From Clostridia bacterium (GTDB lineage: Bacteria > Bacillota > Clostridia > Oscillospirales > Acutalibacteraceae), in contig JAFXCH010000011.1 in NCBI GenBank assembly GCA_017516485.1, forward strand, positions 12,184-76,183: DNA of 64,000 bases, written 5' to 3'. Below the pieces are notes generated by a model. It was not told where the DNA came from, did not search any database, and worked only from the letters and a program-made list of their open reading frames with translations. Positions within the stretch are counted from its first letter, which is position 1. Every line of letters begins with the position of its first letter. Below, one piece after another: positions 26,137 through 47,421 of the stretch. A program made the translations under genes and the position numbers.

Positions 26137-26169
26137 CACTTAAGTCGGAGCAATAGTTCCGGCTGACCT

Positions 26170-29329: not shown

Positions 29330-30064
29330 TCAGTTTATACCTTTGTACTCTGCTTTGACTTTTTCGTAGCTTTCAAGGTTGCCTATGTCATAGCGACTGC
29401 CCGGCATTTCCATTGAGTGTACCTGAGTCTGCTTACAAAGCCAGGCAATATAGCTGCCGGGTGCGTCTGTACCGCAACCGCTGTCAATACCTTTTTGCAC
29501 AAGCCTTGCATCAGCCTTCGAGTAAAAATAAAACGGAGGACAGCACCAGTTTGTTGCGGGAGTCGGTGATTTTTCAGTCATATCAAGCACTTTATCGGTT
29601 TCGTCAACTGTTACAACACCGCACTTGAGAAGCTTGGTGAATTCCGGCTCATAATAACGCATAATACAGGACGTGTTTTTTTCTTTAGCGTATGCGATGA
29701 ATTTTGTAAGGCTGAAATCGAGCACGTTGTCGCCTGCAATAACAAGCATATCATCGTCAAGACCGAGCTTTTCAATCGCAAACTGAATATCTTTTACCGC
29801 ACCCAGACGGGTTTCGTTCGTATCCGTACCGTCGTCAACAACGGTGATTTTTTGTGCTTTTTTTGCTGCCCATTCTTCAAAATGGTGTGCGTATTTATGG
29901 TTGGAAATAACAACATATTCGTCAACCTCACCCGAGGTATCGATATCGTCTACCAGCCAGTCGAGAATTGTTTTTTCGCCTACTTCAAGAAGCGGTTTGG
30001 GAAAATTTTCGGTAAGAGGGTAAAGGCGGGTTGCATAGCCTGCCGCAAGAATAAGACATTTCAT
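29330..30064 (-). CDS. sugar-1-phosphate nucleotidylyltransferase family protein
   Basis: N-terminal ILAAGYATRLYPLTENFPKPLL (the GxGxR-type NTP-transferase signature). About 244 aa. Confidence 0.75.
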   Translation of the reverse strand: MKCLILAAGYATRLYPLTENFPKPLLEVGEKTILDWLVDDIDTSGEVDEYVVISNHKYAHHFEEWAAKKAQKITVVDDGTDTNETRLGAVKDIQFAIEKLGLDDDMLVIAGDNVLDFSLTKFIAYAKEKNTSCIMRYYEPEFTKLLKCGVVTVDETDKVLDMTEKSPTPATNWCCPPFYFYSKADARLVQKGIDSGCGTDAPGSYIAWLCKQTQVHSMEMPGSRYDIGNLESYEKVKAEYKGIN

Positions 30065-30081
30065 AAAAGCACCTCAAAAAA

Positions 30082-31254
30082 TCAGGAGTTGACACCGTTT
30101 GCACTCTTGCAGATGTGCACGGAAAATTTATCTTTAAGATGGGGGAATGCTTTGAGATATTCGCGTGTTACTTTTTCGGTTATCGACTCTTCAAACTCGG
30201 GATTTATCAGAGCCATACAGCAGCCTTTGAAGCCTGCACCCGAAAAGCGACCGCCGTAAATACCTTCGGTCTGAGTCATTATTTCATACAGCTTTTTAAG
30301 CTCAGGAGAGCCTGTTTCCCAGTTGTAAATAGAAGATTTTCCGCTCTCAAATGAAAGCCTGCCAAACGTCTCTATATCACCGTTTTTCCACGCTTCAGCA
30401 CCCTTCTGAACACGGTCAAATTCAGTGTACCAATGCTCGGCACGTTTACGCCAGTTTTCGGGAAGCTTGTCCTTATGCTCAAGGTAAACTTCGTACGGTA
30501 CATCACGCAGGTTTGTTTCCTCAAACTTGCCGTATTCCATGCCGGCATAAGCCTTAAGTGCATAAGCGGCGCTGCGGCATTCGTCAACACGCATATTAAA
30601 TGCTGAGCCTGCAAGTGTACGCTCAATACCGCTGAAAAATATAGCAATTCTGTAAGGCTTCATATCGGGATGCTTGGGAATAAGCTCGTACGTGTCATCC
30701 TGCAAATCCATATAGAGAAGGTGACCTTTTTTGCAGTAAACCTCACAGGACTGATCCAGCTTACCGCAGGAAACACCGACATACAGATTTTCAGCTTCCT
30801 GCGAAATGGTTATAAGCTCCGAAGGCTCAAGCTCGATTGAGTTCATTTTGCAAAGTGCGGACAAAAAGGTGATGATAACCGCCGCCGAAGAAGAAAGACC
30901 GCCTATAGGAAGTTCGCCGTCAACAACCGCACAAAGTCCTCTTCTCAGAGGGTAACGCTTGTTGAGTGCTATTGTTGCACCTCTCAGGTGGTCTGCCCAG
31001 TCGCCCTGCGGAGATTCGGGTGTGGCCGCAACGTGCCACTGTGCTCTTTTGTCAAATTGTTGTGACTGTATTTCGATAACGCCGTTTTCTTTCGGACCGT
31101 AGGCGATATGAATACCTTTGTTAATTGCAATACCCGTTATTTTGCCGAGCTGATGGTCACTGTGTGCTCCGATAGGACAAACTCTGTAAGGCGTAAAAGC
31201 AGTGTACTGAGCCGCTTTTTTGTAGATCTGTTCAAATTTTTCGGTAGCATTCAT
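30082..31254 (-). CDS. GHMP-family sugar-1-kinase (galactokinase superfamily; GalA-kinase-like N-terminal motif)
   Basis: Motifs YRVCPIGAHSDHQLG (a variant of the GalK GEHTDY motif) and GGLSSSAAV (GHMP motif II). ATG at 31254 follows GGAGATAAACAT. The track's longer ORF would overlap the upstream gene. Confidence 0.7.
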   Translation of the reverse strand: MNATEKFEQIYKKAAQYTAFTPYRVCPIGAHSDHQLGKITGIAINKGIHIAYGPKENGVIEIQSQQFDKRAQWHVAATPESPQGDWADHLRGATIALNKRYPLRRGLCAVVDGELPIGGLSSSAAVIITFLSALCKMNSIELEPSELITISQEAENLYVGVSCGKLDQSCEVYCKKGHLLYMDLQDDTYELIPKHPDMKPYRIAIFFSGIERTLAGSAFNMRVDECRSAAYALKAYAGMEYGKFEETNLRDVPYEVYLEHKDKLPENWRKRAEHWYTEFDRVQKGAEAWKNGDIETFGRLSFESGKSSIYNWETGSPELKKLYEIMTQTEGIYGGRFSGAGFKGCCMALINPEFEESITEKVTREYLKAFPHLKDKFSVHICKSANGVNS

Positions 31255-31273
31255 ATGTTTATCTCCGTTCGAA

Positions 31274-32995
31274 TTATTCTTTGGCTTCAATCAGAATTCC
31301 GTCGTCTACAATTTTGTAAACTCTTGTGCAGTACTTAAGCATACTTGGCCTGTGGGTGGTGATTATTCTTGCTCTGTTAGGGTATGTTTTCATCATATTG
31401 GTCAGCACTTTTTCTTCGGTTTTGGCGTCAAGAGCGCTTGTTGCCTCGTCCATAACAACAATCGGTGCATCACGGAGAATTGCCCTGGCTATGGACATTC
31501 TTTGTACCTGTCCTTCTGAGAAATTGACACCTTTTTCACTTATTTCGGTGTTAATTCCAAAAGGCAGCTTTGATACAAAACTCCACGCATCAGCAATCTC
31601 AAGAGCCTCAATAATCTGCTCATCGGTTGCATCCGGGCAAGCTATACGAAGATTGTCTGCAACAGTACCGGAGAAGATTGCATTACCCTGCGGCACGAAA
31701 GAACAGAACCTTCTTGTGCTTTCACAAACAGGGATTTTTATTCCGTCTTTTGTCTTTATTGTTATCGTGCCGGAATCCGGCTCTACGAGGCCGAGAATAA
31801 GCCTTAACAGTGTTGTTTTACCCTCGCCCGACGGGCCGACAAAAGCGACTGTTTCTCCGGGGGCTACCTTGAAATCTGCTTTTCCTACAACGGGTTTATC
31901 TCCATCGGGATATGTGTATTTAAGGTTATCGCAAACTAATGTCAGACCATATTTATCAGCCGTTTCTTCAATATTTTTCGCCTGCTCATCATACCTGTTT
32001 TCTTCAAGCGGAAGTTCGGTAATTTCCATAATTCTGCCTGCCGAGGTAGCAATGGAAATCGAGCTCGGAACAAGCGAAACAAGTGCTGAAAACGAGCTTG
32101 TAAGCTGACCCGAAATCTGCAGAAACAAGGTCATTGTTCCATAAGAAATTGCGCCCTGCCAGAGTCTGTAAACGCCCCAACCGTAGCAAGAGTATGAAAC
32201 AATAAGACCTATCAGCGACATACAAAGACCCATAATGATTGTAAAACGGTCGTGGTCGAGCTTGATTTTTCTGTGAAGCTCGAGGTTGATTTTCATCTGC
32301 TCCACATAACGTTTCGTCAGGTCAAACGCTTTTATAACCTGCATATTCTGAATTGACTCAGAATAAAAAGAAAGGATTTTTCCGTTCATTTCGCGGCTTT
32401 CTTTATTATATTTTCGAATCATTTTTATTGTAAATTTTGAGGAAAGAACGAGGAAAGGTGCACTCAAGAAAGCAAATATCGCCATCGTCGGATCATAATA
32501 AAGAACCACAATAAGACAGCCGATAAACTGCGCACCTTTTGTGAAAATGCTTGGAATATAGCTGATTATGCTTCCCGAAACCGTAGCAACGTCGCCTTCA
32601 ATTCTGTTGAGTAAATCTCCTGAATGGAATTTTCTGAAATCCTCCCACTTGGTGTAAGCAATTTTCTCGTAAACACCGCTGCGTATTTCCATATTGACCT
32701 TACTGCCTACAACAGCAGCTAACCTTGAAACTGCCGCACCGACAAGAATCTGCGTTACGGCAAAAAGCACGGCAATTACAGCACTTTTGACAATCGTATC
32801 GGTGTTGTGCGAAATAACCGAGTCTATCAGATATTTTGAGGCTATGCTTGCACCGAGACCTAAAGCAGTGCTTAAAAGTCCGATAATAACATAAAAAACA
32901 ATCTGAAGACGGTATTTTGAAATGTACTTTAAAAGCCATTTCCATTCTTTTTTCATAGAACGGAACAGCTCTATATATTCACCCGGTTTCTTCAT
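31274..32995 (-). CDS. ABC exporter, fused permease/ATPase (type I exporter)
   Basis: Six N-terminal TM helices. Walker A GPSGEGKTT, signature FSEGQVQR, Walker B VVMDEATSALD. No C39 peptidase domain. Confidence 0.85.
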   Translation of the reverse strand: MKKPGEYIELFRSMKKEWKWLLKYISKYRLQIVFYVIIGLLSTALGLGASIASKYLIDSVISHNTDTIVKSAVIAVLFAVTQILVGAAVSRLAAVVGSKVNMEIRSGVYEKIAYTKWEDFRKFHSGDLLNRIEGDVATVSGSIISYIPSIFTKGAQFIGCLIVVLYYDPTMAIFAFLSAPFLVLSSKFTIKMIRKYNKESREMNGKILSFYSESIQNMQVIKAFDLTKRYVEQMKINLELHRKIKLDHDRFTIIMGLCMSLIGLIVSYSCYGWGVYRLWQGAISYGTMTLFLQISGQLTSSFSALVSLVPSSISIATSAGRIMEITELPLEENRYDEQAKNIEETADKYGLTLVCDNLKYTYPDGDKPVVGKADFKVAPGETVAFVGPSGEGKTTLLRLILGLVEPDSGTITIKTKDGIKIPVCESTRRFCSFVPQGNAIFSGTVADNLRIACPDATDEQIIEALEIADAWSFVSKLPFGINTEISEKGVNFSEGQVQRMSIARAILRDAPIVVMDEATSALDAKTEEKVLTNMMKTYPNRARIITTHRPSMLKYCTRVYKIVDDGILIEAKE

Positions 32996-33115
32996 AAATC
33001 AATCATCTCAATTTTTGCCTGAACGGCCGATAGTAAGAATATTCTTTTTACATATTATCATATATTAGCTCAAATTACAAGATAATAATTTATCATAAAA
33101 ATTATATATAATATA

Positions 33116-33144
33116 TTGACTTTGTTACAAGAAACGGTTATAAT
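33116..33144 (+). promoter_or_regulatory. consensus-like sigma-70 promoter for the HprK-like/rSAM/giant-protein operon
   Basis: TTGACT, 17 nt spacer, TATAAT. Confidence 0.55.
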
Positions 33145-33214
33145 TGCTATGCATATAATGGAATCATATGCTACAATATTACAGTTGTAATTATGTCTGT
33201 ATCAGGTTTGTACG

Positions 33215-34057
33215 ATGAAGAAATTTTATTCGCTATGTAAAAAAAGCATTTGCATTGATGCTGAATCATTCCCCGGCGACAATCCGTTGTGGGAACAGTT
33301 TGAGACAGAATCCTGCAATGCCGATATAACGGTAAAATGCACGGTAAGCGATAGCTTTCCCAAAATACCGGATGGTGTCAGGTCGGGCGAATTCACAGTG
33401 TCTGTCGATGGCGATACGGTTTACAGAGCTTTACCTATGGGCACTATCCCCGGTGCACTCACTATGTACACTCCGGCAGATACTTCCCGCAGTGAAACAT
33501 TTTTCACTCCAAGAAGCTTTCCGATAATGATGGACAGCCGCTTTATGTGGAGCTCGGTTTCACTGGCGCAGCTTTTGCTTTCCGCAAATGCATTTTTTAT
33601 CCATTCGTCCTTTATCTCGGTAAACGGCAAAGCTGTCCTTTTTTCAGCTCCGTGCGGTGTCGGCAAAAGTACGCAGGCCGCATTGTGGGAGAAATACCGC
33701 GGTGCCGAAATAATCAACGGCGATAAAGCGGGTATTCTTGTCGAGAGTGGTGTATATGCCTGCGGAGTTCCCTTTTGCGGAACAAGCGGAATATGCAAAA
33801 ACAAAACCTTTCCACTCGGTGCAATAGTGCTGCTCAGCCAGTCACCTGAAAACAGCATCAGACAGCTTTCGGGTGCCGAAGCGTTACAAGGGCTTATGTT
33901 GAACATATATCTTGATTTGATAGCTCCCGGCGAGCAGAGTGCGATAATAGAGCTTCTTATCAGCTTGTTGGAAACAGTTCCGGTTTATTCCTTTGCCTGT
34001 ACGGCGGACGAATCTGCTGTGCAGATGCTTGAAAATATATTGACGGGTATAATTTAG
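33215..34057 (+). CDS. HPr kinase C-terminal-domain-like P-loop protein (HprK-related kinase)
   Basis: IHSSFISVNGKAVLFSAPCGVGKSTQAALW...GAEIINGDKAGI parallels the HprK/P P-loop region (G.SG.GKS...L..DD). The N-terminal ~130 aa are unassigned. The RBS is weak. Confidence 0.6.
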   Translation: MKKFYSLCKKSICIDAESFPGDNPLWEQFETESCNADITVKCTVSDSFPKIPDGVRSGEFTVSVDGDTVYRALPMGTIPGALTMYTPADTSRSETFFTPRSFPIMMDSRFMWSSVSLAQLLLSANAFFIHSSFISVNGKAVLFSAPCGVGKSTQAALWEKYRGAEIINGDKAGILVESGVYACGVPFCGTSGICKNKTFPLGAIVLLSQSPENSIRQLSGAEALQGLMLNIYLDLIAPGEQSAIIELLISLLETVPVYSFACTADESAVQMLENILTGII

Positions 34058-34078
34058 TTTGTTTTGGGAGAGGTCAGT

Positions 34079-35170
34079 ATGAGTGCTGAGTATGACAAAT
34101 TCATATCCGCGCTCTTTGCCAAGGCGGATTCGGCATCTTTTCCGTTATCGGGCGCGTTTGAGTTGACATCACGGTGTCCGCTCGATTGCAAAATGTGCTA
34201 CATTCACCGTAAGGAGAATGATTGCGATGCGCTACGGCGAGAAAAGAGTGCCGGGTGGTGGCTTGACCTTGCAAAGCAGGCGAGCAAATCGGGAATGTTG
34301 CTTTTGCTGCTCACTGGTGGTGAGCCGTTATTGCGAAAGGATTTTGATGAGATTTATCTCGGAGCCAAACAGCTTGGGCTTCTCGTGTCGGTCAATACAA
34401 ACGCTTTGCTGATTGACGATGAGCGTGTCCGCTTTTTCATAGAGCATCCTCCGCAACGACTGAATATTTCACTTTACGGTGCATCCGAGGAAACCTACCG
34501 CAGCTTATGCGGCAACGGTGAGGCATACGAAAAGGTGCGTTCAGCTATTGTAAAGCTTGTTGAAGCCGGTGTCAGTGTGAAGCTCAACCTTACGGTTACG
34601 GAGTATAACCGTCACGACGTTGCTCAGGTTTACGATTTTGCAAAACAATACGGCTTACCGGTTCAGACTGTTACTTATATGTTTCCGCCTTTGCGTGCAG
34701 GTGGTACAGCTTCAAGGCTGTCTGCAGAGCAGGCGGCTCAGGCAAAGTTTGAGTGTATACGCTGCAAGCTCGGTGACGAAATGCTTGGCAGATTCTTATC
34801 GGCGGCAAAAATGTCTTTACCGAAAGGTGAGGTTGGTGAATGTGGCGATACCTGTGGTGAGCGGATACCGTGTCGTGCAGGCTTAAGTACATTCTGGGTC
34901 ACGTGGGATGGTTTTATGTCCCCTTGCGGGATGATGAACAAGCCGTTTTTCAAAGCGGACGATTTTTCGTCAGCGTGGTCACAGCTTCAAAAAGCACGGC
35001 AGGATATAATTCTTCCGCCAAAATGTCGCAATTGTGATTTGCGAGTGTATTGCGATGTTTGTGCGGCGGTAACGCTTGCAGAAACAGGTTCGTTCGGCGG
35101 CATCCCGGAGTATGTGTGTGTGAAAGCTGCAGTATACAAGAAACTGTGCGACGAAAGAATTGAAAATTGA
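34079..35170 (+). CDS. radical SAM enzyme with C-terminal SPASM/twitch-type Cys-rich domain
   Basis: CPLDCKMCY (CxxxCxxC), LTGGEPLL, and a C-terminal CRAGLSTFWVTWDGFMSPCG...CRNCDLRVYCDVCAAV. ATG at 34079 follows GGGAGAGG. Confidence 0.85.
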   Translation: MSAEYDKFISALFAKADSASFPLSGAFELTSRCPLDCKMCYIHRKENDCDALRREKSAGWWLDLAKQASKSGMLLLLLTGGEPLLRKDFDEIYLGAKQLGLLVSVNTNALLIDDERVRFFIEHPPQRLNISLYGASEETYRSLCGNGEAYEKVRSAIVKLVEAGVSVKLNLTVTEYNRHDVAQVYDFAKQYGLPVQTVTYMFPPLRAGGTASRLSAEQAAQAKFECIRCKLGDEMLGRFLSAAKMSLPKGEVGECGDTCGERIPCRAGLSTFWVTWDGFMSPCGMMNKPFFKADDFSSAWSQLQKARQDIILPPKCRNCDLRVYCDVCAAVTLAETGSFGGIPEYVCVKAAVYKKLCDERIEN

Positions 35171-35337
35171 AAATTCCGGGTCGCTTCGCTCCGATTAAGA
35201 ATTTGAAAATCCCAAACTTTAATTTTCCATTTTCCATTCTCAATTCGCAGTTTTAAAAAACAATTTTCCAAAAAGCCAATTTTGGAATTTTACATAGATT
35301 ACACAAACTACAAAAGAAATTTTGGAGGTACAAATTT

Positions 35338-38300
35338 ATGAAAACCGCAAAAAGAGCATTAGCTATTGTTCTGGCTGTAGCTATCATCTTGTCCGGTTGG
35401 GTATGGGCTGATCCTTTTAAAAATGTTTCAGCTGCAAACCTTACAGGCGATTCTAACTATCTTTTCGCCTACTTCACCGGCACAAGTACAGAGGGTCAGA
35501 CAATCCACCTTGCCGTATCACAAGACGGTTTAAACTATACCCCGCTTCATAATAACGATCCGGTTATTATTCCGTCAAAGGGTACAGGTAACGTCCGTGA
35601 CCCTTATCTCTGGTATAACGAGAACGACGGTTATTTCTACATCCTCGCTACCGACCTTGACTTTACAGACACAGGCAGCGACTACTCGGACAACAGTGAA
35701 AGCTTCATCGTATGGCGTTCAAAGGACCTTGTAAACTGGTACGATGAAACAATGATCGACGTCAAGGCTATTCTCGGCAGATTAGGCATAAACAATAACA
35801 ATATGCAGGCTGTATGGGCTCCTCAGGTTCTCTGGGACGGTACAGAGTTTGTTGTTTACTTCTCACTTCAGTGTGACGCAACATCAAACGGCAGCTGGAA
35901 TCCGCTTACTATTGTTTACCTTAAAACAACCGACCTTCTTGATGAGAGTAAATATCATCAGTACGGTGTAATTCACAACCCCGGTCGTCACGTTATCGAC
36001 GCTGATATTATCAAGAAGCCCGGTACAAACCAGTACTATATGTTCTATAAGGACGAATCTGCTTCAGGCGGTATTCAGTCAATCTACTATATGGTTTCCG
36101 ATAACGGTCCTACCGGACCTTACTATGCTCCCGGTAACGCTAACGACGGCAGAGGTCCTCAGCTTTTCTCGGAAATCGGCCAAAACCTTGAGGGATGTAA
36201 CTCTTTCTTTGATGACAACGGTAATCTGATTACTTATGTTGATGAATACGGTTACTGGAACTCCCTAACAAATCAGAACGAAGCTCACTTCCACGTTTCA
36301 AGCTCAAGTGACTTCAGCACGTTCACTACACTTCCCGACAGCTCACACAACATCAACGAACTTTCTCCCCGTCACGGTTCGGTTGTAAAGATTACTGACG
36401 AAGAATACAACCGTCTTCTTGCATATTCAAGCGAAATAACCTCTTCATCATTCCCCGAAACAGAAACCCTTTCAGATCATCTTGTCGGCAGATATTTCAC
36501 AACAGCAGACTACACTTATAATGCCGCAAATGGTAAAAATGACCTTACCCTTACTGACGGTACAATTTCTGCAGTAGCAGATACCTCCGGCGATTACTAT
36601 GCTCATTTTAACGCCGCCGGTGCAGAGATTAATCTGGCAAACCTTATTTCAGGCGACCTTAATATTAAGGACGGTTTTACAATTACCTTCTCCGCTTCAG
36701 CACCCACCAGTCTCGGTGCAAACTCCAGATTCTTTGATATATCAAACAACTTCTCACAGAGAACAAATCCTGCTGAATGTTATCTTCACATGTCACCCGT
36801 CGCTGAAAGCAACGGTCTTTACGTCGGCGCTTACAACGGCCCCGTAACAACCTCAAGCTGGACCTGGGCATCGCAGGGCAGAAACTACAACGACGGTGCT
36901 ATGCACGATTATATTATCAGCTTTGCAGACGGTAATTTGATGCTGTATATCGACGGTCAGCTTGCAATGAAGCGTGACCGTTACAACATGAACGCAGAAT
37001 ACGGCGACAATTTCCTTGCTGATAATTGGTATAAGGCAATCGGTAACTCGGTAATGCGTATCGGTAAGTCCGAGTGGTCTGACCCCCTGTTCACCGGTGA
37101 TATGCAGAACCTCTGTATTTATGACTGTTCGCTTTCTTATTACGACGTTCAGAAAATGCAGAAGACATTTGACGCCGAGGCAGGTAAAACAACAATTGCT
37201 AAAATTGCTGTTCCCGAAACCGTTTATATGACACCCTCAACAGGTGCTTCTACCACAGGTCAGTATTATGTAAATAACAGAATACATGACGGCTCCAACG
37301 AGGTATCTCTTGAGGTAAACCCGGCTCAGACAAAAGGTGTTATAGAGTTTTATATTCCCGGTGCTAAACAATTTAAAATTGAAGTAACTACAAGAACATC
37401 CGGTATCGGTGATATTGTGCTTGCAGAAGCCGGTGCAACATCCGGTTCATATGAAAACACTGCATTCGATGCAGAGGCAAACGGTTATTTCTCTTATGAA
37501 TCAATCGGCTTTTATATCAGCGGCACAGGTATAACTCCCGGTAACACTGCTCTTGCGGAGTGGAAATTTACCGCTATAATGCAAGACGGTTCACAGACGA
37601 CACACTACGCATATACAACACTTTATGCGCCGTATCTTAATCCCGTCGGTTCTGCTGTTCGTCTTAAGAGCCGTTATTATAATGATAATGGCTTGTATGC
37701 ATCGTCTATGGCTTGGGTTTCCGGTGTTCATGGCTTTACTAACGATCCGGCAGCCAATTATTATGCCCGTACAGATAATATGGTTCCTCTTTTGACCGGA
37801 GGAGCAATCGGAACAGGTAATAATGCAAATAATCCTCATGAACATTGGATATCTGAAAGTGCCGGCAGCAATACCTTATCTACTGCATCATTCAGATATC
37901 TTAATATTGATGGCTCGAGTGGTAAACTTGGTGCAATCGGTGTTTACCGAAGCCCCGTTGCAAACCTGACAATTGATACAAGCCGATACAGCAATTTCAA
38001 TCAGATTCCTAACCTTACCGTTGGTTTTAACTACACTGATAACGAAAATGCAGGCGAAAGCCATTGGTATGTGTCCGACTATACAGACGGCAACATGAAC
38101 TATATGGAAGACTATTCTAAGGTTGATAACCGTAATAATGTCAATACCGAGGCTGGACATTATTATAATGAAGACAGTGATGTACCAAATAATATTATTT
38201 CGAATAACGGTCTTCTTGCTGCTCAGGTATCTACCGGTGCGGAACATAATGCAAAATGGGACAGACCCGTTAAACCCGGTACTACAAACCAGTATATATT

Positions 38301-41100
38301 CAAGAGCGGTGCATATTCATATCGTGAATACACGACTTGGGGTATAAAATATCAAAGTGTTGGATACAGCGTCAATTATGTTCTTGTTAACGGTACAAAC
38401 GTTGACAAAACAGAGTTGCGTAACCTTGTTCTTAAATCAACATTCTTCAACCAGAGTGACTACACTTCTGCTTCATGGAGTAATTTCCAGACAGCACTTC
38501 AGAATGCTGCTTCAGCTCTCGGTACTCCCGCAAACGCAGACGTTTCAACAAAAACAGCTCTTGAGAATGCAATAAATGCACTCCAGACAACCGTTACACT
38601 CAACGCAAACGGCGGTACAATCAACGGTAGTACAACAACAACAGTTGCTGTAACTGTTGGTGCAGAGACAAATATAGATTACGATGTTTCCTCTTATACT
38701 CCTGTTCGTGAAGGTTATATCTTCGTGGGTTGGTCTACATCAAATAAAGCCACAACAGGTTCAAAATCAACTGTAACCGCAGGTCTTATGCCCACACTCT
38801 ATGCTGTATGGGAAAAATTGATTACCGTAACCTTCGATAACCTTATCAATTTCAGAGAATGGAACAAGGCAGCCGGAAACGGTACTGTTACTAACATAAC
38901 GAATACCGGCTTCACAATCACCTGTAATGAAGGTGCAGGCGAGGCTACTTCATCCTCACCCTATTTCGACGTAACGCCCGGCAAGCAGTACAAGATTGAC
39001 ATTGACGTTACGAAAGGCGATGGCTGGGACGTTTACATCTTCTTCTGCGATGCAGACGGCAACTGGATTGATTTTGCCGACAGCACAAACAGATATTCTT
39101 CAAACGGTCACGGTCCTGTAGACCGTGTATTTACCGCACCGAACAAGTCCGAGGTTGTTAAAGCACAGATTCGTGTTGACTCAAACGGCAGCAACAACAC
39201 TGTGAGATTCGAAAATATCAGAGTTTACGAAATAGGCGTGTTTGAGGCAGAAGGCGTTGAATACTGCCCTGACAAAACTTTCAAGGCCGATACAGCTTAC
39301 AGTAATATGCTTCCCGCACCGACAAAACCCGGCTACACATTTGTCGGCTGGTTTGACGGCGACAACTACGTAAACGCAGACTCTATGGTGCGTAATGCGG
39401 ACAGTGCAGTAGTCAACCTTATGTCACGTTGGATTAAGGACGCTGTAATTGCTGTCGACTTCGAGACTCCGATTACGTTCACTCCTGAAGCTAAGAACGT
39501 AACCGAAGCAGGCTCGGTTACCGATTCTGCATACGGTAGCTTTACTGCCAACGGTGCAGCAATCACCTTCACGCCCGATAAAATTTTCTCCGAACCCGAA
39601 AACCTTACCTACCAAGCAACAGCCAGCGGCGTAACAGTTAAGCCCAAGCTTACAATCGTTCCCGCTTCAAACGTTCTTTATGAAGATAAGTACTTTGAAT
39701 TTGACAACAACCCAACCGGTGTAGAGTGGGCCAACGTCAAGTCGAGTGCTACAGGCACAGCCGGCTCAGGTGACGACAGCGTTTACGGCTACGATTCAAG
39801 CTATGCTGTACAGAACAACTACTCTGCAGGCACAGCTAAAGAAGTATACGTTGACAGCACAAACAAGCGTTCACAGATTCTTGCTATGGACTTTGTCGGC
39901 ACAGGATTCTCACTCTACGGTGTCTGCGGACCTGAAACAGGCGTTCAGCTTGTTACAATCTGCGATGAAAACGGCAAGGCTGTTAAGGTATATATAATTG
40001 ATACTTATTATTCAGAGGAATTGCTTTATCAGGTTCCCGTTCTTACTCACACAGGTCTTACACACGGTAAGTGGACAGTTAAGGTTGCTGCAAACTACAT
40101 TACAACAGCCGGCGCTGTTCAGAACTTCAATATTTCTCAGCAGAGTGTTGAAGGTCTTGAGGACGTAACAACTTACTCAACAAATTACGTTTCCGATGAG
40201 CTTCTTGCAGAGCTTGGCATCACAGCCGAAGATGTTGAAGTAGTATGGTTCGATGAGAACTCCGTACTTAACGGCGGTACAGGTGCAACAGCTCCTGCTT
40301 TCAACATCGGCCTTATGTCCGAATCAACAGGAACTGAAGCAACTCTCAGCCTTCTCTCCGTCATCGATGGTATCAGAGTATTCGAGCCTCTCGGTGACGA
40401 AGGCTACGATTATTACAACGACAACGAGAAGGGCGCTAAGTACTATAACGTAATTGCTAACCTTGCTGATGGCAACGGTATTGTAGGATCTGCAGACAAC
40501 AAGATTTTTGCTTACGTATTCGGCGACAGCGAAAACAAATCTGTTACCTTCGCTGATTATGACGCAAAGGGTGCTAAGGATGAGCTTTACCTCATGGGCG
40601 GCACAAATAATGCTCTGGCATTCACTCTTAACCAGGGTAATAAGGTTATGATAAGCCTTCGTTCTGCTGACGGCACTCCGCTCACAGTTAATGTTAACGG
40701 CAAGAAAACTATTACAGTCACCGGTCAGACCGAAATGTTCTATGACATTTCAGATGCTATGAGTGCTGACGGAAGCGTTGCAATAACAAATCAGACAGCA
40801 GGTAAGCTTCTTGCTGTAGTTTACATTAAGGTTGTTGGCGCTGTGCCCGCACCTATAGCGAATATCGACCTCAACTCTGTTGCAATGCTGATGTTCGCTC
40901 CCGCTCCCACACCTGATGTTGATGAGCCCGATGAACCCACAACAGGTGACGAACCCACAACAGGTGACGAACCCACAACAGGTGACGAGCCCACAACAGG
41001 TGACGGAACTTATAATTGCATATTCTGGCAATTCCTTGTTCAGATCTTTAGATTTATAATGAACACATTCAACAGCTTCTTTGCTATGCTTGTTAATTAA
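35338..41100 (+). CDS. giant secreted multidomain protein: GH43-like beta-propeller, LamG/concanavalin-like, FIVAR, Listeria-Bacteroides (Flg_new) repeats, EPTTGD x4 tail
   Basis: 1920-aa uninterrupted ORF with RBS GGAGG. Signal peptide MKTAKRALAIVLAVAIILSGWVWA. GH43-like motifs: NVRDPYLW, YFYILATD, VWAPQV. LamG-like: GFTITFSA...MHDYIISFADGNLMLYIDG. FIVAR-like: DYTSASWSNFQTALQNA. Flg_new-like: VTLNANGGTING...REGYIFVGW and KPGYTFVGWF. Confidence 0.85.
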   Translation: MKTAKRALAIVLAVAIILSGWVWADPFKNVSAANLTGDSNYLFAYFTGTSTEGQTIHLAVSQDGLNYTPLHNNDPVIIPSKGTGNVRDPYLWYNENDGYFYILATDLDFTDTGSDYSDNSESFIVWRSKDLVNWYDETMIDVKAILGRLGINNNNMQAVWAPQVLWDGTEFVVYFSLQCDATSNGSWNPLTIVYLKTTDLLDESKYHQYGVIHNPGRHVIDADIIKKPGTNQYYMFYKDESASGGIQSIYYMVSDNGPTGPYYAPGNANDGRGPQLFSEIGQNLEGCNSFFDDNGNLITYVDEYGYWNSLTNQNEAHFHVSSSSDFSTFTTLPDSSHNINELSPRHGSVVKITDEEYNRLLAYSSEITSSSFPETETLSDHLVGRYFTTADYTYNAANGKNDLTLTDGTISAVADTSGDYYAHFNAAGAEINLANLISGDLNIKDGFTITFSASAPTSLGANSRFFDISNNFSQRTNPAECYLHMSPVAESNGLYVGAYNGPVTTSSWTWASQGRNYNDGAMHDYIISFADGNLMLYIDGQLAMKRDRYNMNAEYGDNFLADNWYKAIGNSVMRIGKSEWSDPLFTGDMQNLCIYDCSLSYYDVQKMQKTFDAEAGKTTIAKIAVPETVYMTPSTGASTTGQYYVNNRIHDGSNEVSLEVNPAQTKGVIEFYIPGAKQFKIEVTTRTSGIGDIVLAEAGATSGSYENTAFDAEANGYFSYESIGFYISGTGITPGNTALAEWKFTAIMQDGSQTTHYAYTTLYAPYLNPVGSAVRLKSRYYNDNGLYASSMAWVSGVHGFTNDPAANYYARTDNMVPLLTGGAIGTGNNANNPHEHWISESAGSNTLSTASFRYLNIDGSSGKLGAIGVYRSPVANLTIDTSRYSNFNQIPNLTVGFNYTDNENAGESHWYVSDYTDGNMNYMEDYSKVDNRNNVNTEAGHYYNEDSDVPNNIISNNGLLAAQVSTGAEHNAKWDRPVKPGTTNQYIFKSGAYSYREYTTWGIKYQSVGYSVNYVLVNGTNVDKTELRNLVLKSTFFNQSDYTSASWSNFQTALQNAASALGTPANADVSTKTALENAINALQTTVTLNANGGTINGSTTTTVAVTVGAETNIDYDVSSYTPVREGYIFVGWSTSNKATTGSKSTVTAGLMPTLYAVWEKLITVTFDNLINFREWNKAAGNGTVTNITNTGFTITCNEGAGEATSSSPYFDVTPGKQYKIDIDVTKGDGWDVYIFFCDADGNWIDFADSTNRYSSNGHGPVDRVFTAPNKSEVVKAQIRVDSNGSNNTVRFENIRVYEIGVFEAEGVEYCPDKTFKADTAYSNMLPAPTKPGYTFVGWFDGDNYVNADSMVRNADSAVVNLMSRWIKDAVIAVDFETPITFTPEAKNVTEAGSVTDSAYGSFTANGAAITFTPDKIFSEPENLTYQATASGVTVKPKLTIVPASNVLYEDKYFEFDNNPTGVEWANVKSSATGTAGSGDDSVYGYDSSYAVQNNYSAGTAKEVYVDSTNKRSQILAMDFVGTGFSLYGVCGPETGVQLVTICDENGKAVKVYIIDTYYSEELLYQVPVLTHTGLTHGKWTVKVAANYITTAGAVQNFNISQQSVEGLEDVTTYSTNYVSDELLAELGITAEDVEVVWFDENSVLNGGTGATAPAFNIGLMSESTGTEATLSLLSVIDGIRVFEPLGDEGYDYYNDNEKGAKYYNVIANLADGNGIVGSADNKIFAYVFGDSENKSVTFADYDAKGAKDELYLMGGTNNALAFTLNQGNKVMISLRSADGTPLTVNVNGKKTITVTGQTEMFYDISDAMSADGSVAITNQTAGKLLAVVYIKVVGAVPAPIANIDLNSVAMLMFAPAPTPDVDEPDEPTTGDEPTTGDEPTTGDEPTTGDGTYNCIFWQFLVQIFRFIMNTFNSFFAMLVN
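40933..41004 (+). repeat. four tandem 18-nt repeats encoding EPTTGD
   Basis: GAACCCACAACAGGTGAC occurs three times, then GAGCCCACAACAGGTGAC once. Confidence 0.95.
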
Positions 41101-41115
41101 GAAAGGATTAATATA

Positions 41116-41361
41116 ATGAATAAATATACTAAACCTACTCTTTCGCTTCTTGCTGTTGCAACCAATACCGGTTCTACTTCAAGTTGTGCAACAGGTACTG
41201 TAGAAGCAAAAGAAGTTCTTGAAATGCTTGGAATGATGGGCGTTCCTAAAGAAAATGCTTTCAATTCTAATGAAAATTGCGCATTCCCTGTAGATGGTGT
41301 TGATTCTGGATTTGTAAACTATTGTAAATTCTCAGGCGCCGTTCAGGTTTTCTACTCATAA
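41116..41361 (+). CDS. 81-aa hypothetical small protein (3 Cys, C-terminal Ser); candidate modified peptide
   Basis: ATG lies 15 nt after the giant gene's stop and is preceded by GAAAGGA. A terminator follows. Sequence: MNKYTKPTLSLLAVATNTGSTSSCATGTVEAKEVLEMLGMMGVPKENAFNSNENCAFPVDGVDSGFVNYCKFSGAVQVFYS. Confidence 0.55.
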   Translation: MNKYTKPTLSLLAVATNTGSTSSCATGTVEAKEVLEMLGMMGVPKENAFNSNENCAFPVDGVDSGFVNYCKFSGAVQVFYS

Positions 41362-41377
41362 TACTCAACCAATTAAA

Positions 41378-41413
41378 AGAGCTGTCTGCTAACGCAGGCG
41401 GCTCTTTTCTTTT
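41378..41413 (+). terminator. rho-independent terminator ending the giant-protein operon
   Basis: AGAGCTGTCTGC-TAAC-GCAGGCGGCTCT (imperfect) followed by TTTTCTTTTC. Confidence 0.6.
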
Positions 41414-41589
41414 CTCCGGATTTTATTTTAGTTAGCATACAAAATCATTACGGCAATACTTCTTTTCTCTTGGAATCTTTTTGCCATATAATAAGGAAAA
41501 TAATAAAAATATATAATAATATGTTGACTTGATATTGCTATTTATAGTATTATATATTATGTATAATTGTGTACTGGTGGAGGTGTACC

Positions 41590-42315
41590 ATGGTCGATAT
41601 TCACTGTCATATTCTGCCCGGTCTTGACGACGGTTCAGACAACATCGAAGAGTCTGTTCGTATGGCACGGCTTGCAGCCGACGGCGGAACAACGGCCATA
41701 ATCGTTACACCTCACAGCAACATTCCCGACTCGTTTCAGAACTACTGCGGTGAGCAGTATATTGAAGCGTTTACGAGGTTTGAAAGCAGACTCAGGGACG
41801 AAAATATTCCCCTCAGAATATACCCCGGTCACGAAATTTTTGCTTCGGGCGATATTGCCTCGCTGATAAAAGAACGCAAGCTGTTTACGCTCTGCAATTC
41901 AGATTATCTGCTGATTGAATTTGCTTTCAGGGAATCTCCGGAAACCGCCTACCGCAAACTCCGCGAGCTTGTGTCAGAAGGTTTTGTTCCCGTTGTAGCA
42001 CACCCCGAGAGATATGCGTTTGTAGCGGATGACGATTATGCGCCGCTCAGAATGAAGGATATGGGTTGCCTGATTCAGGTCAATAAGGGCAGCCTCAAGG
42101 GAAGCTTCGGCAGGAGCGCATATATGATTTCACACAGCTTAATCAGACACCGTTTTGCTGATTTTGTTGCAAGCGATGCTCACAGCCCGTATATGCGTAC
42201 CCCGTATCTCGCCGATGCGCACAGTATTATCACCGATATCACTTCGGCTGATTATGCCGACCGTGTACTCAATGTTAACCCGAGTAAAATTCTTAAAAAT
42301 GAAAAAATTATATAA
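41590..42315 (+). CDS. PHP-family protein-tyrosine phosphatase CpsB/Wzh-like
   Basis: MVDIHCHILPGLDDGS motif. ATG at 41590 follows GGAGG. About 241 aa. Confidence 0.85.
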   Translation: MVDIHCHILPGLDDGSDNIEESVRMARLAADGGTTAIIVTPHSNIPDSFQNYCGEQYIEAFTRFESRLRDENIPLRIYPGHEIFASGDIASLIKERKLFTLCNSDYLLIEFAFRESPETAYRKLRELVSEGFVPVVAHPERYAFVADDDYAPLRMKDMGCLIQVNKGSLKGSFGRSAYMISHSLIRHRFADFVASDAHSPYMRTPYLADAHSIITDITSADYADRVLNVNPSKILKNEKII

Positions 42316-42331
42316 CTTCAAGGTGAATTAA

Positions 42332-43150
42332 ATGAAACCGTTCAGAATTATTGTTACAGTCTTATTCGTTGTTGTTTCAATTGTTTCGGCCGCTATATTC
42401 GTAGTGGAAAAGCTTGAAACCGACAAAACAATACCGCAGATTACAATTGAAGAGGAAATGATAAAGGTCAGCCTTAATGCAACCGATGAGGAGCTTCTCC
42501 GCGGTGTTACGGCTTATGACGAAAAGGACGAGGATCTGACCGATAAAATAATAGTTGAATCTGTTTCAGGTTTTATCCGTAAAGGCGTAAGCAAGGTTAC
42601 ATATGCAGTTTGCGACAGTGACAATAATACTGCCAAAGCTACGAGACTGATTCAGTACGAAGGCTATGAATCGCCCAAGTTCAAGGTTAACGGTAATCTC
42701 TGCTTCTCTCTTTTTGAGCATATCGATATCAGAGAGCTTGTCAGCGCTATCGACAGCCTCGAGGGTGACATCAGCTCAAAGATAGTGGTTACATCCGACG
42801 ACTATTCGTCTTCTATCAGCGGTGCTTTTTCGCTCAACGTTTCGGTTACAAACCAGAAGGGTGACTCTTCAACAATAACACTGCCGCTTATCGTTGAGGA
42901 CCGTCCGCTTTCAGTACCGAAGATAGAGCTTTCTGAATATCTCGTTTACGTCTCCAAGGGAGAACAACTCGATTTCAACTCATATGTCGTTGACGTAGTT
43001 GATTCTAACGAGCAAAGTATTGACGCCAACGTTACCGTTGAGTCAACCGTAGATTTCAGAACTCCCGGCACATATCACGTTCACTATTATGCAACAGACA
43101 GTCTCGGTCTCAGGGGACACAGCGTGCTGACAGTTATTGTTGAGGAATGA
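42332..43150 (+). CDS. membrane-anchored protein with Ig-like (DUF5011-type) domains
   Basis: N-terminal TM helix. Repeated beta-rich modules ending TPGTYHVHYYATDSLGLRGHSVLTVIV. Confidence 0.5.
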   Translation: MKPFRIIVTVLFVVVSIVSAAIFVVEKLETDKTIPQITIEEEMIKVSLNATDEELLRGVTAYDEKDEDLTDKIIVESVSGFIRKGVSKVTYAVCDSDNNTAKATRLIQYEGYESPKFKVNGNLCFSLFEHIDIRELVSAIDSLEGDISSKIVVTSDDYSSSISGAFSLNVSVTNQKGDSSTITLPLIVEDRPLSVPKIELSEYLVYVSKGEQLDFNSYVVDVVDSNEQSIDANVTVESTVDFRTPGTYHVHYYATDSLGLRGHSVLTVIVEE

Positions 43151-43157
43151 TTAACTT

Positions 43158-44633
43158 ATGAAAAAAAATAAAATTTCAATTGAAATACACAGCCTTATAA
43201 AAGATATTGTCAAAAACATCTGGGTTGTTATTCTTTGTGCTCTTATCGGCAGCATGGGCTTCTCGATATTTGATTATATGACCTATGAGCCTGCGTACAC
43301 TTCATCGGCTACCCTTTCTGTTCTGAACGGTACTACCAACACTGCTTCGTATTCAACATATACCGTTTCGGCTGAACAGGCAAATGTTCTTGTCAACATC
43401 TTTACGGAACCGATGATTAAAGAATACGCTGCAGAATACCTTGACGAGGACAGCTTCGACGGTAATATTTCAGCAACAGTTCTTGAGCAGACTAATTTTA
43501 TTGAACTGAAAGTAACATCGGATCATCCCGAAAAAGCATATAGACTCCTCAACGCAGTTATCAAAACACATCATAAAGTTTCACACAAAATTTTCAGAAA
43601 CGCCGGTCTTACAGTTATCAAAATGCCTACCGTGCCGACCGGCCCTTCAAACATTGCTTCGGATTCAGACCGTAAAATAGTGGTTACGGCTTTTGCAACA
43701 GTAGCCTTTGCTTTGATTGTTGTGTTCTCCGTTATGCGCAACACGGTTAAAAAAGAGAAGGATTTTGAAGACAATATAGATTCAAAACTTATCGGCACAA
43801 TTGCCCATGAAGATAAAAGAATGACCCTGAATGATATCTGGAAGAAAAAGAAAAAGGGTCTGCTTATTCACAACAACGCATATATAAGTCTGCGTTTTAC
43901 GGAAAGCTTCCATAAAATTGCCGCAAGGCTTGAACACGAAAAAAGCCGTACCGACAGCAAAGTTTTTGCAATCACAAGCGTTGCTGAAAACGAAGGCAAA
44001 TCAACATGTGCGGCAAACCTTGCGATTTCGCTTGCGGACAGAGGCCATAAGGTATTGCTTATTGACCTCGACTTTAAAAAGCCAGCAATTTTCAAAATAT
44101 TTGATGAAGAAACATCACGCAACGACAACCTTTCATATTTGCTCAGTAAAGAAACACCTCTTGAAAATTTTGTTTTCGGACGTTATAAAAAAACTTCGCT
44201 TTACCTTGCAATCAACACAAAGGCAAATCCGTCTTACTACAAATTTATCCGTGAAGGTAACATAGAAAATCTTATAAAAACGCTCAGACCGGATTATGAC
44301 TATATACTTATTGATACCGCTCCTCTTTCACTTGATTCAGCAGTAACAGACATAATCGGTATGGTCGATAAAACAGTACTTGTTATCCGTACGGATTCAG
44401 TAAGTATAAATGCAATCAACGACTCCATTTCAACAATCAGTAAAATCAGTGCTAATCTTGTCGGCTGTATACTCAATGATGTTCATATGAAGATGCTTCC
44501 GTTCAGTATTACGGGAAATGACGAGAGTAACGGTTACAGCCGATACGGCTACGGTAGATACTCCGGCTACGGTTACTACGGACACTACATCCACCACAAG
44601 CACGGCAGCAAAAAAGAAGAAGCTGTTAAGTAA
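43158..44633 (+). CDS. fused Wzz-type chain-length modulator / BY-kinase (tyrosine autokinase), copy 1
   Basis: Two TM helices flank an extracellular domain. Walker A ENEGKST, A' LLIDLDFKKP, B YDYILIDTAP. Tyr-rich tail YSRYGYGRYSGYGYYGHY. Confidence 0.8.
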   Translation: MKKNKISIEIHSLIKDIVKNIWVVILCALIGSMGFSIFDYMTYEPAYTSSATLSVLNGTTNTASYSTYTVSAEQANVLVNIFTEPMIKEYAAEYLDEDSFDGNISATVLEQTNFIELKVTSDHPEKAYRLLNAVIKTHHKVSHKIFRNAGLTVIKMPTVPTGPSNIASDSDRKIVVTAFATVAFALIVVFSVMRNTVKKEKDFEDNIDSKLIGTIAHEDKRMTLNDIWKKKKKGLLIHNNAYISLRFTESFHKIAARLEHEKSRTDSKVFAITSVAENEGKSTCAANLAISLADRGHKVLLIDLDFKKPAIFKIFDEETSRNDNLSYLLSKETPLENFVFGRYKKTSLYLAINTKANPSYYKFIREGNIENLIKTLRPDYDYILIDTAPLSLDSAVTDIIGMVDKTVLVIRTDSVSINAINDSISTISKISANLVGCILNDVHMKMLPFSITGNDESNGYSRYGYGRYSGYGYYGHYIHHKHGSKKEEAVK

Positions 44634-44665
44634 TTTAAAATTCTGACTGAAAGAAAGATTTGACA

Positions 44666-46132: not shown

Positions 46133-46204
46133 ACCGAAAAGGTTTTTATCTGCACAGCAAAAATCAGTATTATTCAAATCTCTATAAAAGAAAGAGGTTT
46201 ATTT

Positions 46205-47410: not shown

Positions 47411-47421
47411 GGAAGAACGTT

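Follow-up and report, generated by a model that had tools for sequence, protein, structure and literature searches.

A radical SAM and HPr-kinase-like gene cassette proposed to mature the small partner of a giant secreted glycosidase-like protein in gut Clostridia

Enzymes of the HprK superfamily are known to act on ribosomal products that carry a leader. In paeninodin-type lasso peptide tailoring and in the linear polyphosphorylated peptide (LPP) clusters (PadeK, ThcoK and LppK kinases; PMC9266682, PMC13381572), such a P-loop enzyme acts on a precursor with a [Y/W]xxPx[L/V/I] leader motif, and HprK-like kinases phosphorylate the conserved C-terminal Ser of paeninodin-type precursors (PMC9266682). 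These clusters include an MsbA-like exporter and a nearby nucleotidyltransferase gene, and are embedded in a capsule-polysaccharide locus. A second precedent is the maturation of QhpC, the gamma subunit of quinohemoprotein amine dehydrogenase (QhpC/QhpD/QhpE/QhpF; PMC7876137), a small leader-bearing subunit that is largely unstructured until it is crosslinked in the cytoplasm by a SPASM radical SAM enzyme, exported by a dedicated ABC pump and assembled with large Sec-exported subunits encoded in the same operon. The computationally defined SynChlorMet (SCM) cassette and the GeoRSP and HprK-related-A systems of TIGRFAMs appear to pair an ScmC/HprK-related P-loop protein with one or more PqqE-like radical SAM/SPASM enzymes, while the sactipeptide and ranthipeptide maturases (SkfB, AlbA, PapB) are SPASM/Twitch radical SAM enzymes acting on Cys-containing leader peptides.

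We examined a 64,000-nucleotide stretch of a Clostridia bacterium genome (GCA_017516485.1, contig JAFXCH010000011.1, positions 12,184 to 76,183), hereafter the window, for which an initial annotation had described an HprK-like P-loop protein and a radical SAM/SPASM enzyme in one operon with a 1920-aa exoprotein and an 81-aa Cys peptide, next to a divergent ABC exporter. All of these features were confirmed, and are listed below in window positions.

29330 to 31290 (-), GalK-like sugar kinase (30082-31290, its start overlapping the ABC stop) and sugar-1-phosphate nucleotidyltransferase (29330-30064), in one operon with the ABC gene
31274 to 32995 (-), MsbA-like fused ABC exporter, 573 aa, divergent from the operon; proposed exporter of the matured small protein
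33116 to 33144 (+), sigma-70-type promoter-like site (TTGACT, 17 nt, TATAAT) ahead of the four-gene operon
33215 to 34057 (+), ScmC-family P-loop protein of predicted HprK/PEPCK fold, 280 aa; putative NTP-dependent modifier (kinase) of the small protein
33647 to 33673 (+), Walker A P-loop, A145-PCGVGKS-T153
34079 to 35170 (+), radical SAM/SPASM enzyme; the ORF is listed from TTG 34064, and the likely start is ATG 34079
34175 to 34198 (+), CPLDCKMC radical SAM cluster motif (C38, C42 and C45 in the numbering of the 368-aa ORF)
34871 to 35119 (+), SPASM region, C270-x12-G-x4-C288, C321-x2-C324-x5-C330-x2-C333, C352
35338 to 41100 (+), giant secreted glycosidase-like protein, 1920 aa: signal peptide, GH43-like N-terminus, LamG, FIVAR, Flg_new, shared C-terminal module, linker, hydrophobic tail
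39646 to 40917 (+), shared C-terminal module (residues 1437-1860)
40933 to 41004 (+), four EPTTGD repeats (acidic linker)
41005 to 41097 (+), C-terminal hydrophobic/amphipathic tail, a probable surface or membrane anchor
41116 to 41361 (+), 81-aa small protein, the proposed substrate: leader, Cys24, Cys55, Y-C70-K-F, C-terminal Ser81
41125 to 41136 (+), YTKP, the lasso-type YxxP leader recognition motif, followed by T-L
41356 to 41358 (+), codon of the C-terminal Ser
41375 to 41408 (+), intrinsic-terminator-like hairpin that closes the operon
41569 to 48108 (+), start of the adjacent capsule/exopolysaccharide locus: CpsB phosphatase, Ig-like protein, two Wzz-tyrosine-kinase fusions, DegT aminotransferase, priming sugar transferase

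The promoter-like site matched 11 of 12 consensus positions and was the best site in 32900-41700, while the hairpin, with a 15-pair stem followed by a T-run, was the only strong one after the operon. The likely start of the radical SAM gene follows a GGAGAGG ribosome-binding site. The 81-aa ORF is a real gene, with pN/pS of 0.12-0.55 in six orthologue pairs.

The first gene product contains a Walker A motif, APCGVGKST, followed by IINGDK, and its precomputed Pfam hit is PF27840 'ScmC'. Profile searches gave only weak hits, far below the cut-offs. Hpr_kinase_C and TIGR00679 had best E-values of 2.8e-4 and 2.4e-4, with scores of 13-17 bits for the window protein against cut-offs of 33 and 240. 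Among 17 diverse members, all 17 weakly hit TIGR04249 and TIGR04352, while 8 of 17 hit Hpr_kinase_C. Across these 17 sequences (36-100% identity) H130, G148, G150, K151, S152, T153, N168, G169, D170 and K171 were invariant, consistent with the P-loop, following acidic motif and preceding His of the HPr kinase/phosphorylase superfamily. Three of the four residues of the catalytic H-K-D-D of lasso-type kinases (PMC9266682) are present, but the first Asp is an invariant Gly, and kinase activity is therefore not assured. The top Foldseek PDB hits were HprK/P or PEPCK, although at E 1e-3 to 6e-2 and TM 0.2-0.5, and from a low-confidence AlphaFold model (pLDDT 51).

The second gene product matched Pfam Radical_SAM at 80.3 bits against a cut-off of 29.5. 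The Pfam SPASM model itself did not hit at E<=0.01, yet all seven Cys of the SPASM pattern were 100% conserved in 84 homologues and the three cluster Cys were 99-100% conserved. None of the characterised radical SAM equivalogs considered (AhbD, MoaA, PqqE, SkfB, ScmE/F, GeoRSP, PapB, anSME-like) was reached at its curated cut-off, with the best hit being AhbD at 96.8 bits against 500; ScmE scored 68.9 against 400 and SkfB 65.6 against 300. Its nearest solved relatives are the peptide modifiers SkfB, PqqE and SuiB, with SkfB the best match (E 1.5e-14). The giant protein carries a signal peptide identified by eye, an alpha-arabinofuranosidase-like (GH43-type) N-terminus at E 1.6e-20 but below its cut-off, Flg_new above its cut-off, and weak Laminin_G_3 and FIVAR matches. 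The exporter contains ABC_membrane and ABC_tran, is MsbA-like, and has no peptidase domain.

Comparison of 93 related loci (individual loci are designated by an L number below) showed a conserved four-gene set in Acutalibacteraceae/Oscillospiraceae genomes assembled from metagenomes, with 172 species holding one. The order is ScmC, SPASM radical SAM enzyme, a giant of 1300-2900 aa and a 75-92 aa protein, and the four genes travel together in every locus with enough sequence. ScmC and the radical SAM gene were adjacent in every locus. Of 66 small genes, 65 lie -4 to +39 nt after a giant, and 59 of 60 distinct module-bearing giants are followed by a small gene, the one exception having the gene with an alternative start. 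The giant-small pair stays together when its position relative to ScmC and the radical SAM gene changes (L083, L085-L087, L089), and also when a second pair has no maturases of its own (L088).

The giants have different catalytic domains (GH43-like, GH2, GH20, sialidase), and the C-terminal module of about 420 aa was the only part common to all giants that precede a small gene. This module was found in 501 clusters at 50% identity, always near the C-terminus of 1000-2900-aa proteins, and had no Pfam or PDB match. The EPTTGD linker was not conserved outside close relatives, with other giants having different acidic linkers, and the hydrophobic tail is replaced by SLH domains in L086 and L087 and by an Ig-like end in L083.

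The small protein belongs to an unannotated family with a lasso-type YxxPx[L/I] leader motif and three invariant Cys. Y4, K6, P7, C24, C55, C70, K71 and S81 were invariant in our alignment, in which the leader reads Y4-x-K6-P7-x-[ILVF], in agreement with the published motif (PMC13381572, PMC12710340), and 127 of 128 distinct sequences end in Ser. The cores are hypervariable behind conserved leaders, and in L088 two paralogues have identical leaders and diverged cores. Divergence of the core tracked the giant's module (rho 0.58; 0.51 after controlling for ScmC) more than it tracked ScmC (0.38), although this could simply reflect adjacent genes being inherited together. The AlphaFold model of the small protein was low-confidence (pLDDT 50.6).

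The initial annotation had noted the absence of a PqqD/RRE gene and of a leader protease, and this is true of the 64-kb window. Among the annotated genes of 26.7-48.1 kb we likewise found no archaeal-type signal peptidase I and no B2/C lasso enzymes. In the related loci, however, PqqD genes were present in 28 of 93, sitting beside ScmC in 16 loci and after the radical SAM gene in the L085/L087/L089 cassette type. The best family hits of the L089 PqqD were lasso-peptide PqqD chaperones, L035 carries a ScmC-PqqD fusion, and a signal-peptidase-I-like gene occurs in L082, L083 and L017. A homologue of the ABC exporter lies within 1-7 kb in about 45 of 80 loci, and one is also present next to the distant cassette types, but it is absent from the sequenced flanks of many loci and is a frequent rather than a universal neighbor. 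The trio of exporter, GalK-like kinase and nucleotidyltransferase is conserved in L008, L009, L011, L012, L024, L040, L053 and L058, and the association with capsule loci recurs in different arrangements, including the distant loci L082 and L083.

The locus shares features with each of the systems above but differs from all of them. As in the paeninodin and LPP clusters there is an HprK-like P-loop protein, a YxxP leader, a conserved terminal Ser (as in paeninodin), an MsbA-like exporter, a nearby nucleotidyltransferase gene and a capsule-polysaccharide setting. In contrast to those clusters, a SPASM radical SAM enzyme is obligatory, there is no lasso cyclase or B2 protease, the window has no discrete recognition protein or peptidase, ScmC has Gly in place of the first catalytic Asp and scores far below the HprK-related models, the nucleotidyltransferase is a PF00483 sugar-1-phosphate type paired with a GalK-like kinase, and the precursor gene is welded to that of a giant glycosidase. 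The resemblance to QhpC maturation, which likewise involves a Cys-containing protein of about 80 aa, is in logic only. The radical SAM enzyme is not a QhpD orthologue, and no subtilisin-like QhpE, QhpG monooxygenase or heme/beta subunits appeared among our profile hits. There is no Trp for a quinone cofactor, the host is Gram-positive, the partner is a glycosidase rather than a dehydrogenase, an HprK-like protein is added, and the partnership is inferred. Compared to the SynChlorMet cassette, which appears to comprise ScmC (TIGR04249), the PqqD homologue ScmD and two radical SAM/SPASM proteins (ScmE, ScmF), scores against TIGR04249, TIGR04250 and TIGR04251 were 15-69 bits against cut-offs of 125-400 (ScmC 14.7 against 125), there is one radical SAM enzyme, and no PqqD is encoded in the window. 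A precursor family can be named here, and the giant glycosidase and capsule-locus setting do not appear to be part of the SynChlorMet, GeoRSP or HprK-related-A definitions. Relative to the sactipeptide and ranthipeptide maturases, the enzyme has no N-terminal recognition domain (the CxxxCxxC motif starts at residue 38), the substrate is about 80 aa with Cys residues 30 and 15 residues apart, and the precursor gene lies 5.9 kb away, behind a giant gene.

The main proposal of the initial annotation, a peptide- or protein-modification cassette of an unrecognised layout operonic with a giant surface CAZyme-like protein, is supported by this comparison. Of the two substrates it had suggested, the 81-aa product and the giant protein itself, the 81-aa product is favored. 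With moderate confidence we propose a RiPP-like maturation cassette in which one promoter drives the four genes and the small protein is made in the cytoplasm with a YxxPxL leader, the motif bound by lasso-type PqqD recognition proteins. The radical SAM enzyme would install intramolecular crosslinks, most likely thioethers using the three invariant Cys, and ScmC would probably add phosphate, most likely at the C-terminal Ser, with a Ser next to Cys1 as an alternative. There are no biochemical data for any member. ScmC-like proteins also occur in neighboring cassettes whose precursors do not end in Ser (L017, L035), and therefore the C-terminal Ser need not be the target. As the small protein has no Sec signal, it would be carried out by the ABC exporter, and outside the cell would act together with the C-terminal module of the giant, at the cell surface next to the capsule. 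Every chemical step, the export route and the physical partnership in this model are inferred.

Two alternatives are unlikely but survive better than the others. In the first, the small protein is an ordinary free RiPP, such as a bacteriocin or a signal, and the giant is only a linked passenger or accessory. The cassette has the usual RiPP ingredients of leader, SPASM enzyme and exporter, with PqqD and signal peptidase I in relatives, the cores are hypervariable, and sister cassettes in L017 and L035 have the same enzymes and small precursors but no giant. However, the adjacency holds in both directions, survives rearrangement and duplication, and extends across giants with unrelated catalytic domains that share only the C-terminal module, which is hard to explain without a functional tie. 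In the second, equally doubtful alternative, ScmC is not a kinase but an NTP-dependent scaffold or recognition partner presenting the leader-bearing protein to the radical SAM enzyme, and the terminal Ser is conserved for another reason, such as docking to the giant or recognition by the exporter. The Gly substitution, the constant adjacency to the radical SAM gene, the fusion to PqqD in L035, the precursors lacking a terminal Ser and the lack of a separate recognition protein in the window are consistent with this, while the invariant P-loop, His and second Asp, the closest characterised relatives being kinases of leader-bearing peptides, and the terminal Ser mirroring paeninodin precursors argue against it.

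It is very unlikely that the maturase pair modifies the giant protein itself, with the 81-aa protein as an accessory. Operon membership supports this, and most giants in cassettes with the window's layout end in an acidic linker followed by an amphipathic helix. In L088 a tract of about 300 nt covering the giant's tail and the small protein's leader is kept nearly identical between two otherwise 44%-identical paralogues, but this identity is at the DNA level and indicates gene conversion rather than selection. The linker and tail have no conserved motif and are replaced while ScmC, the radical SAM enzyme and the small gene persist, the giants carry Sec signal peptides, and the YxxP leader, invariant Cys and terminal Ser are all on the small protein. 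Least likely is a Sec/Lsp-exported lipoprotein lipidated at Cys24 that tethers the giant, with the radical SAM enzyme and ScmC acting on something else: although one subfamily has a strongly conserved N-terminus, MKDYIKPTFTLAGLFPVALAAGGC, resembling a lipoprotein signal with a lipobox, and the invariant Cys1 sits directly after the leader, 47 of 128 distinct sequences have charged residues inside the would-be hydrophobic core, only 2 fit a lipobox pattern, the window's N-terminus is weakly hydrophobic (0.75 on the Kyte-Doolittle scale, 15-residue window, against 2.72 for the giant's signal peptide), and the YxxP motif and linked PqqD genes argue for a RiPP-type leader.

A bolder reading, tentative and on balance unlikely, is that the 75-92 aa protein is not a free natural product but a crosslinked, phosphorylated mini-subunit needed by every member of a family of giant, capsule-associated glycosidases, docking on or covalently joined to their shared module. 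It could serve as a stabilising or anchoring piece or, more speculatively, could carry a protein-derived cofactor built from the invariant Y-C-K-F motif. That would make RiPP-type chemistry a way of building parts of surface enzymes in Gram-positive gut bacteria, as QhpC is for a periplasmic dehydrogenase.

Our analysis gives a concrete, testable substrate to the ScmC/HprK-related plus radical SAM/SPASM cassettes, which have sat in databases for years as predicted peptide-maturation systems with no known precursor, and ties them to the recently described phosphorylated-peptide clusters that also sit in capsule loci and whose biological role is unknown. It also defines two unannotated families, the small protein and the C-terminal module of about 420 aa, that genome annotation currently misses. 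The strict pairing of each small protein with a giant surface glycosidase suggests a role beyond antibiotic peptides, with post-translationally crosslinked mini-proteins as parts of carbohydrate-active surface machinery in abundant but uncultured rumen and gut Clostridia.

The gene arrangement described in the initial annotation, a promoter followed by four co-directional genes and a single terminator with a divergently transcribed ABC exporter, was confirmed. The open reading frames and sites observed were as follows:

31274-32995, minus strand, ABC exporter
33116-33144, the best promoter-like site of the region (11 of 12 matches)
33215-34057, a 280-aa P-loop protein (gene 1)
34064-35170, a radical SAM enzyme (gene 2), listed from 34064 but with a likely ATG start at 34079, after a GGAGAGG ribosome-binding site
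35338-41100, a 1920-aa protein (gene 3)
41116-41361, an 81-aa open reading frame (gene 4)
41375-41408, a terminator-like hairpin with 15 pairs

Family searches agreed with the gene assignments of the initial annotation. Gene 2 matched Pfam Radical_SAM at 80 bits, gene 3 contained a GH43-type arabinofuranosidase-like N-terminus together with Laminin_G_3, FIVAR and Flg_new, and the exporter was MsbA-like. Gene 1 had no hit in the local copy of Pfam, while the precomputed annotation of the protein database was PF27840 'ScmC', and we refer to this protein as ScmC. Rfam and tRNA scans found no RNA element in the operon, although tRNA-Met (CAT) and tRNA-Glu (TTC) genes were observed at 26060-26244, in an otherwise ORF-poor gap of 1.8 kb upstream of an MFS transporter gene.

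A total of 1321 relatives of ScmC were found in the protein database, and a scan of one genome per species identified 172 species with a relative. All of the loci retained were named Acutalibacteraceae, Oscillospiraceae or unclassified Clostridia, and all were from genomes assembled from metagenomes, many of them from ruminant gut samples. Across the 93 loci compared (individual loci are given L numbers below), ScmC was always followed by the radical SAM gene and, wherever there was enough sequence, by a giant ORF of 1300-2900 aa and then an ORF of 75-92 aa. We found that 65 of 66 small genes were located -4 to +39 nt after a giant, while 59 of 60 distinct giants were followed by a small gene, and the one exception has the gene with an alternative start. 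The observed gaps (-4, -1, 0, 10, 12-15, 17, 20 and 39 nt) showed no consistent frame, and read-through or frameshift fusion of the giant and small proteins was rejected. The giant-small pair also remained together where the gene order changed. In L085 and L089 the order was giant, small, a 219-241 aa protein that looks like a lipoprotein, ScmC, radical SAM and PqqD, in L083 it was giant, small, ScmC, radical SAM, ABC and peptidase, and in L088 a second giant-small pair was positioned convergently with no maturases of its own. The cassette type of L085 and L089 (giant GH2, an 81-aa small protein starting MKKLYVKP, the lipoprotein-like protein, ScmC, radical SAM, PqqD; also noted for L090) was observed to co-exist with the window's type in the same genome, with L085 and L036 located about 13 kb apart on contig JAZUON010000002.1, which recalls the leader-discrimination problem described for linear polyphosphorylated peptide (LPP) and lasso clusters. 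In some loci, additional ORFs of 86-167 aa were observed between ScmC, the radical SAM gene and the giant. Rather than hidden recognition proteins, most of these read, by eye, like DUF559-type endonuclease proteins (L055, L056, L060, L071, L072, L076, L079, L052, L054, L061) or four-helix-bundle (23S rRNA intervening-sequence-type) proteins (L009, L064, L065), and they appear to be selfish insertions into the intergenic spacers of the operon.

The small protein looks like the substrate of this cassette. A homology search with the single 81-aa sequence found only 8 relatives, while a profile search found 82, none of them named and none with a Pfam domain; small genes are often left uncalled. 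No credible PDB relative was found with the small-protein profile. The invariant residues were Y4, K6, P7, C24, C55, C70, K71 and S81, 127 of 128 distinct sequences ended in Ser, and pN/pS was 0.12-0.55. The N-terminus, M-x-x-Y-x-K-P-x-[ILVF], is the [Y/W]xxPx[L/V/I/F/A] motif bound by lasso-type recognition proteins (PMC13381572, PMC12710340). It is not a Sec signal, having a Kyte-Doolittle hydrophobicity of 0.75 compared with 2.72 for the signal peptide of the giant. Charged residues were observed within this stretch in 47 of 128 members, and a lipoprotein-signal reading of the leader was rejected for most members. In L088, the two paralogues shared an identical 25-residue leader but had diverged cores. 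A tract of about 300 nt (L088:9730-10075 and L088:10680-11010), spanning the last 70 or so codons of the giant, the spacer and the first 25 codons of the small gene, was nearly identical in DNA, while the rest of the two giants was 44% identical. Although this tract first looked like strong selection, its identity at the DNA level indicates gene conversion, with the tract ending exactly at the leader/core boundary. The AlphaFold model of the small protein (74 sequences) was low-confidence (pLDDT 50.6), with one short helix. QhpC, the gamma subunit of quinohemoprotein amine dehydrogenase, is likewise largely unstructured before crosslinking.

The radical SAM enzyme contained C38/C42/C45, an extra invariant C149, and a full seven-Cys SPASM pattern in all 84 homologues. 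It had no N-terminal recognition domain and fell far below every curated family cut-off, and its nearest solved relatives were SkfB, PqqE, SuiB and MoaA. ScmC retained H130, the P-loop (K151) and D170 across 36-100% identity. All 17 diverse members weakly hit TIGR04249 (ScmC) and TIGR04352 (HprK-related A), while eight hit Pfam Hpr_kinase_C. A PDB sequence search with the ScmC profile gave nothing credible. The AlphaFold model of ScmC (14 close sequences) was poor (pLDDT 51) but still retrieved only HprK/P and PEPCK structures, and we used this fold search only as weak support. Lasso-type kinases need His-Lys-Asp-Asp, whereas the first Asp is here an invariant Gly, so kinase activity is plausible but not assured.

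While the window contained no PqqD gene, 28 of 93 loci did. Sixteen of these loci had the gene 410-620 nt upstream of ScmC, L008, L009 and L011 had it 4-6 kb upstream, and the L085/L087/L089 cassette type had it directly after the radical SAM gene. The PqqD of L089 matched lasso-peptide PqqD chaperones best. Small S24/S26-type peptidases were observed in L082, L083 and L017, with that of L083 weakly matching archaeal-type signal peptidase I. A further cassette type was observed next to the main cassette, on the far side of the capsule genes, in L017 (L017:310-4951, minus strand) and L035 (L035:169-5960, minus strand), and also in L084. L017 contained an ABC exporter, PqqD, a radical SAM protein (350 aa), an 89-aa YxxP-type precursor starting MKKKYIAPES, a 253-aa ScmC-like protein and a signal-peptidase-I-like protein, while L035 contained two radical SAM genes, an 86-aa precursor and a 377-aa ScmC-PqqD fusion. 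These precursors did not end in Ser and had no giant partner, and the terminal Ser and the giant are therefore specific to the subtype of the window.

Only the region equivalent to residues 1437-1860 of the window protein was shared by all of the giants. The N-terminal parts varied, and were GH43/32-like, GH2, GH20, BNR sialidase, or nothing recognisable. The shared module formed 501 clusters at 50% identity among 1.84 billion representative proteins, always near the C-terminus of 1000-2900-aa proteins, and had no Pfam or PDB match. Its only conserved Cys was C1530 (39925-39927), at 90%; as the small protein has an odd number (three) of invariant Cys, an intermolecular disulfide or thioether is conceivable. 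After the module, most giants had an acidic linker and an amphipathic or hydrophobic helix, while L086 and L087 had SLH domains instead and L083 had an Ig-like end. The tail is therefore most likely a surface anchor, and the EPTTGD repeats (40933-41004), which the initial annotation had raised as a possible site of modification, are not a conserved target. Other secreted proteins in these genomes (L046:8026-9888, minus strand; L085:17604-19238) also ended in a similar short amphipathic or hydrophobic C-terminal helix (e.g. ...WWQTIIRILLLGFLWY and ...NLIEKIIRIVKNIINRIL...), which suggests a lineage-wide C-terminal anchoring device that is independent of the cassette. Divergence of the small-protein core tracked the module (rho 0.58) and the radical SAM enzyme (0.51) more than it tracked ScmC (0.38), although this is suggestive only because the genes are adjacent.

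The operon was located at the head of a capsule/exopolysaccharide locus, which also included DegT and a priming transferase, and whose first genes were:

41569-42315, CpsB
42332-43150, a 272-aa Ig-like surface protein
43158-44633 and 44660-46132, two tandem paralogous Wzz (chain-length determinant) fusions to BY-kinase ATPase domains

Homologues of CpsB, the Ig-like protein and the Wzz-kinase were observed within 10 kb in most loci, either downstream or divergently upstream, including the distant loci L082 and L083. The stop codon of the ABC exporter gene overlapped the start of a GalK-like sugar kinase gene, which was followed by a sugar-1-phosphate nucleotidyltransferase gene in one minus-strand operon (29330-32995). 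This trio was conserved in several relatives (L008, L009, L011, L012, L024, L040, L053, L058), and could supply an activated sugar for the peptide, as PsmN does for phospho-Ser in pseudomycoidin, or simply serve the capsule. The setting echoes that of the paeninodin and LPP clusters.

From gene content, synteny and sequence invariants we infer a mechanism in which the leader is recognised either by a PqqD encoded elsewhere or by ScmC itself, the SPASM enzyme crosslinks the Cys residues, and ScmC transfers phosphate, most likely to Ser81, following the paeninodin precedent in which the kinase acts on the conserved C-terminal Ser of the precursor. The ABC pump would then export the product, which would act with the module of the giant at the cell surface. 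The overall logic of this proposal resembles QhpC/QhpD/QhpF, although each of these steps is inferred. We found no description of this layout in the searchable literature, and while each ingredient is known, the combination of a predicted HprK-fold protein and a SPASM enzyme proposed to act on a nameable precursor family, the invariant terminal Ser, and the obligate coupling to giant glycosidase-like proteins are new. It remains a realistic, if tentative, possibility that this cassette represents a new way of building a surface-enzyme subunit.
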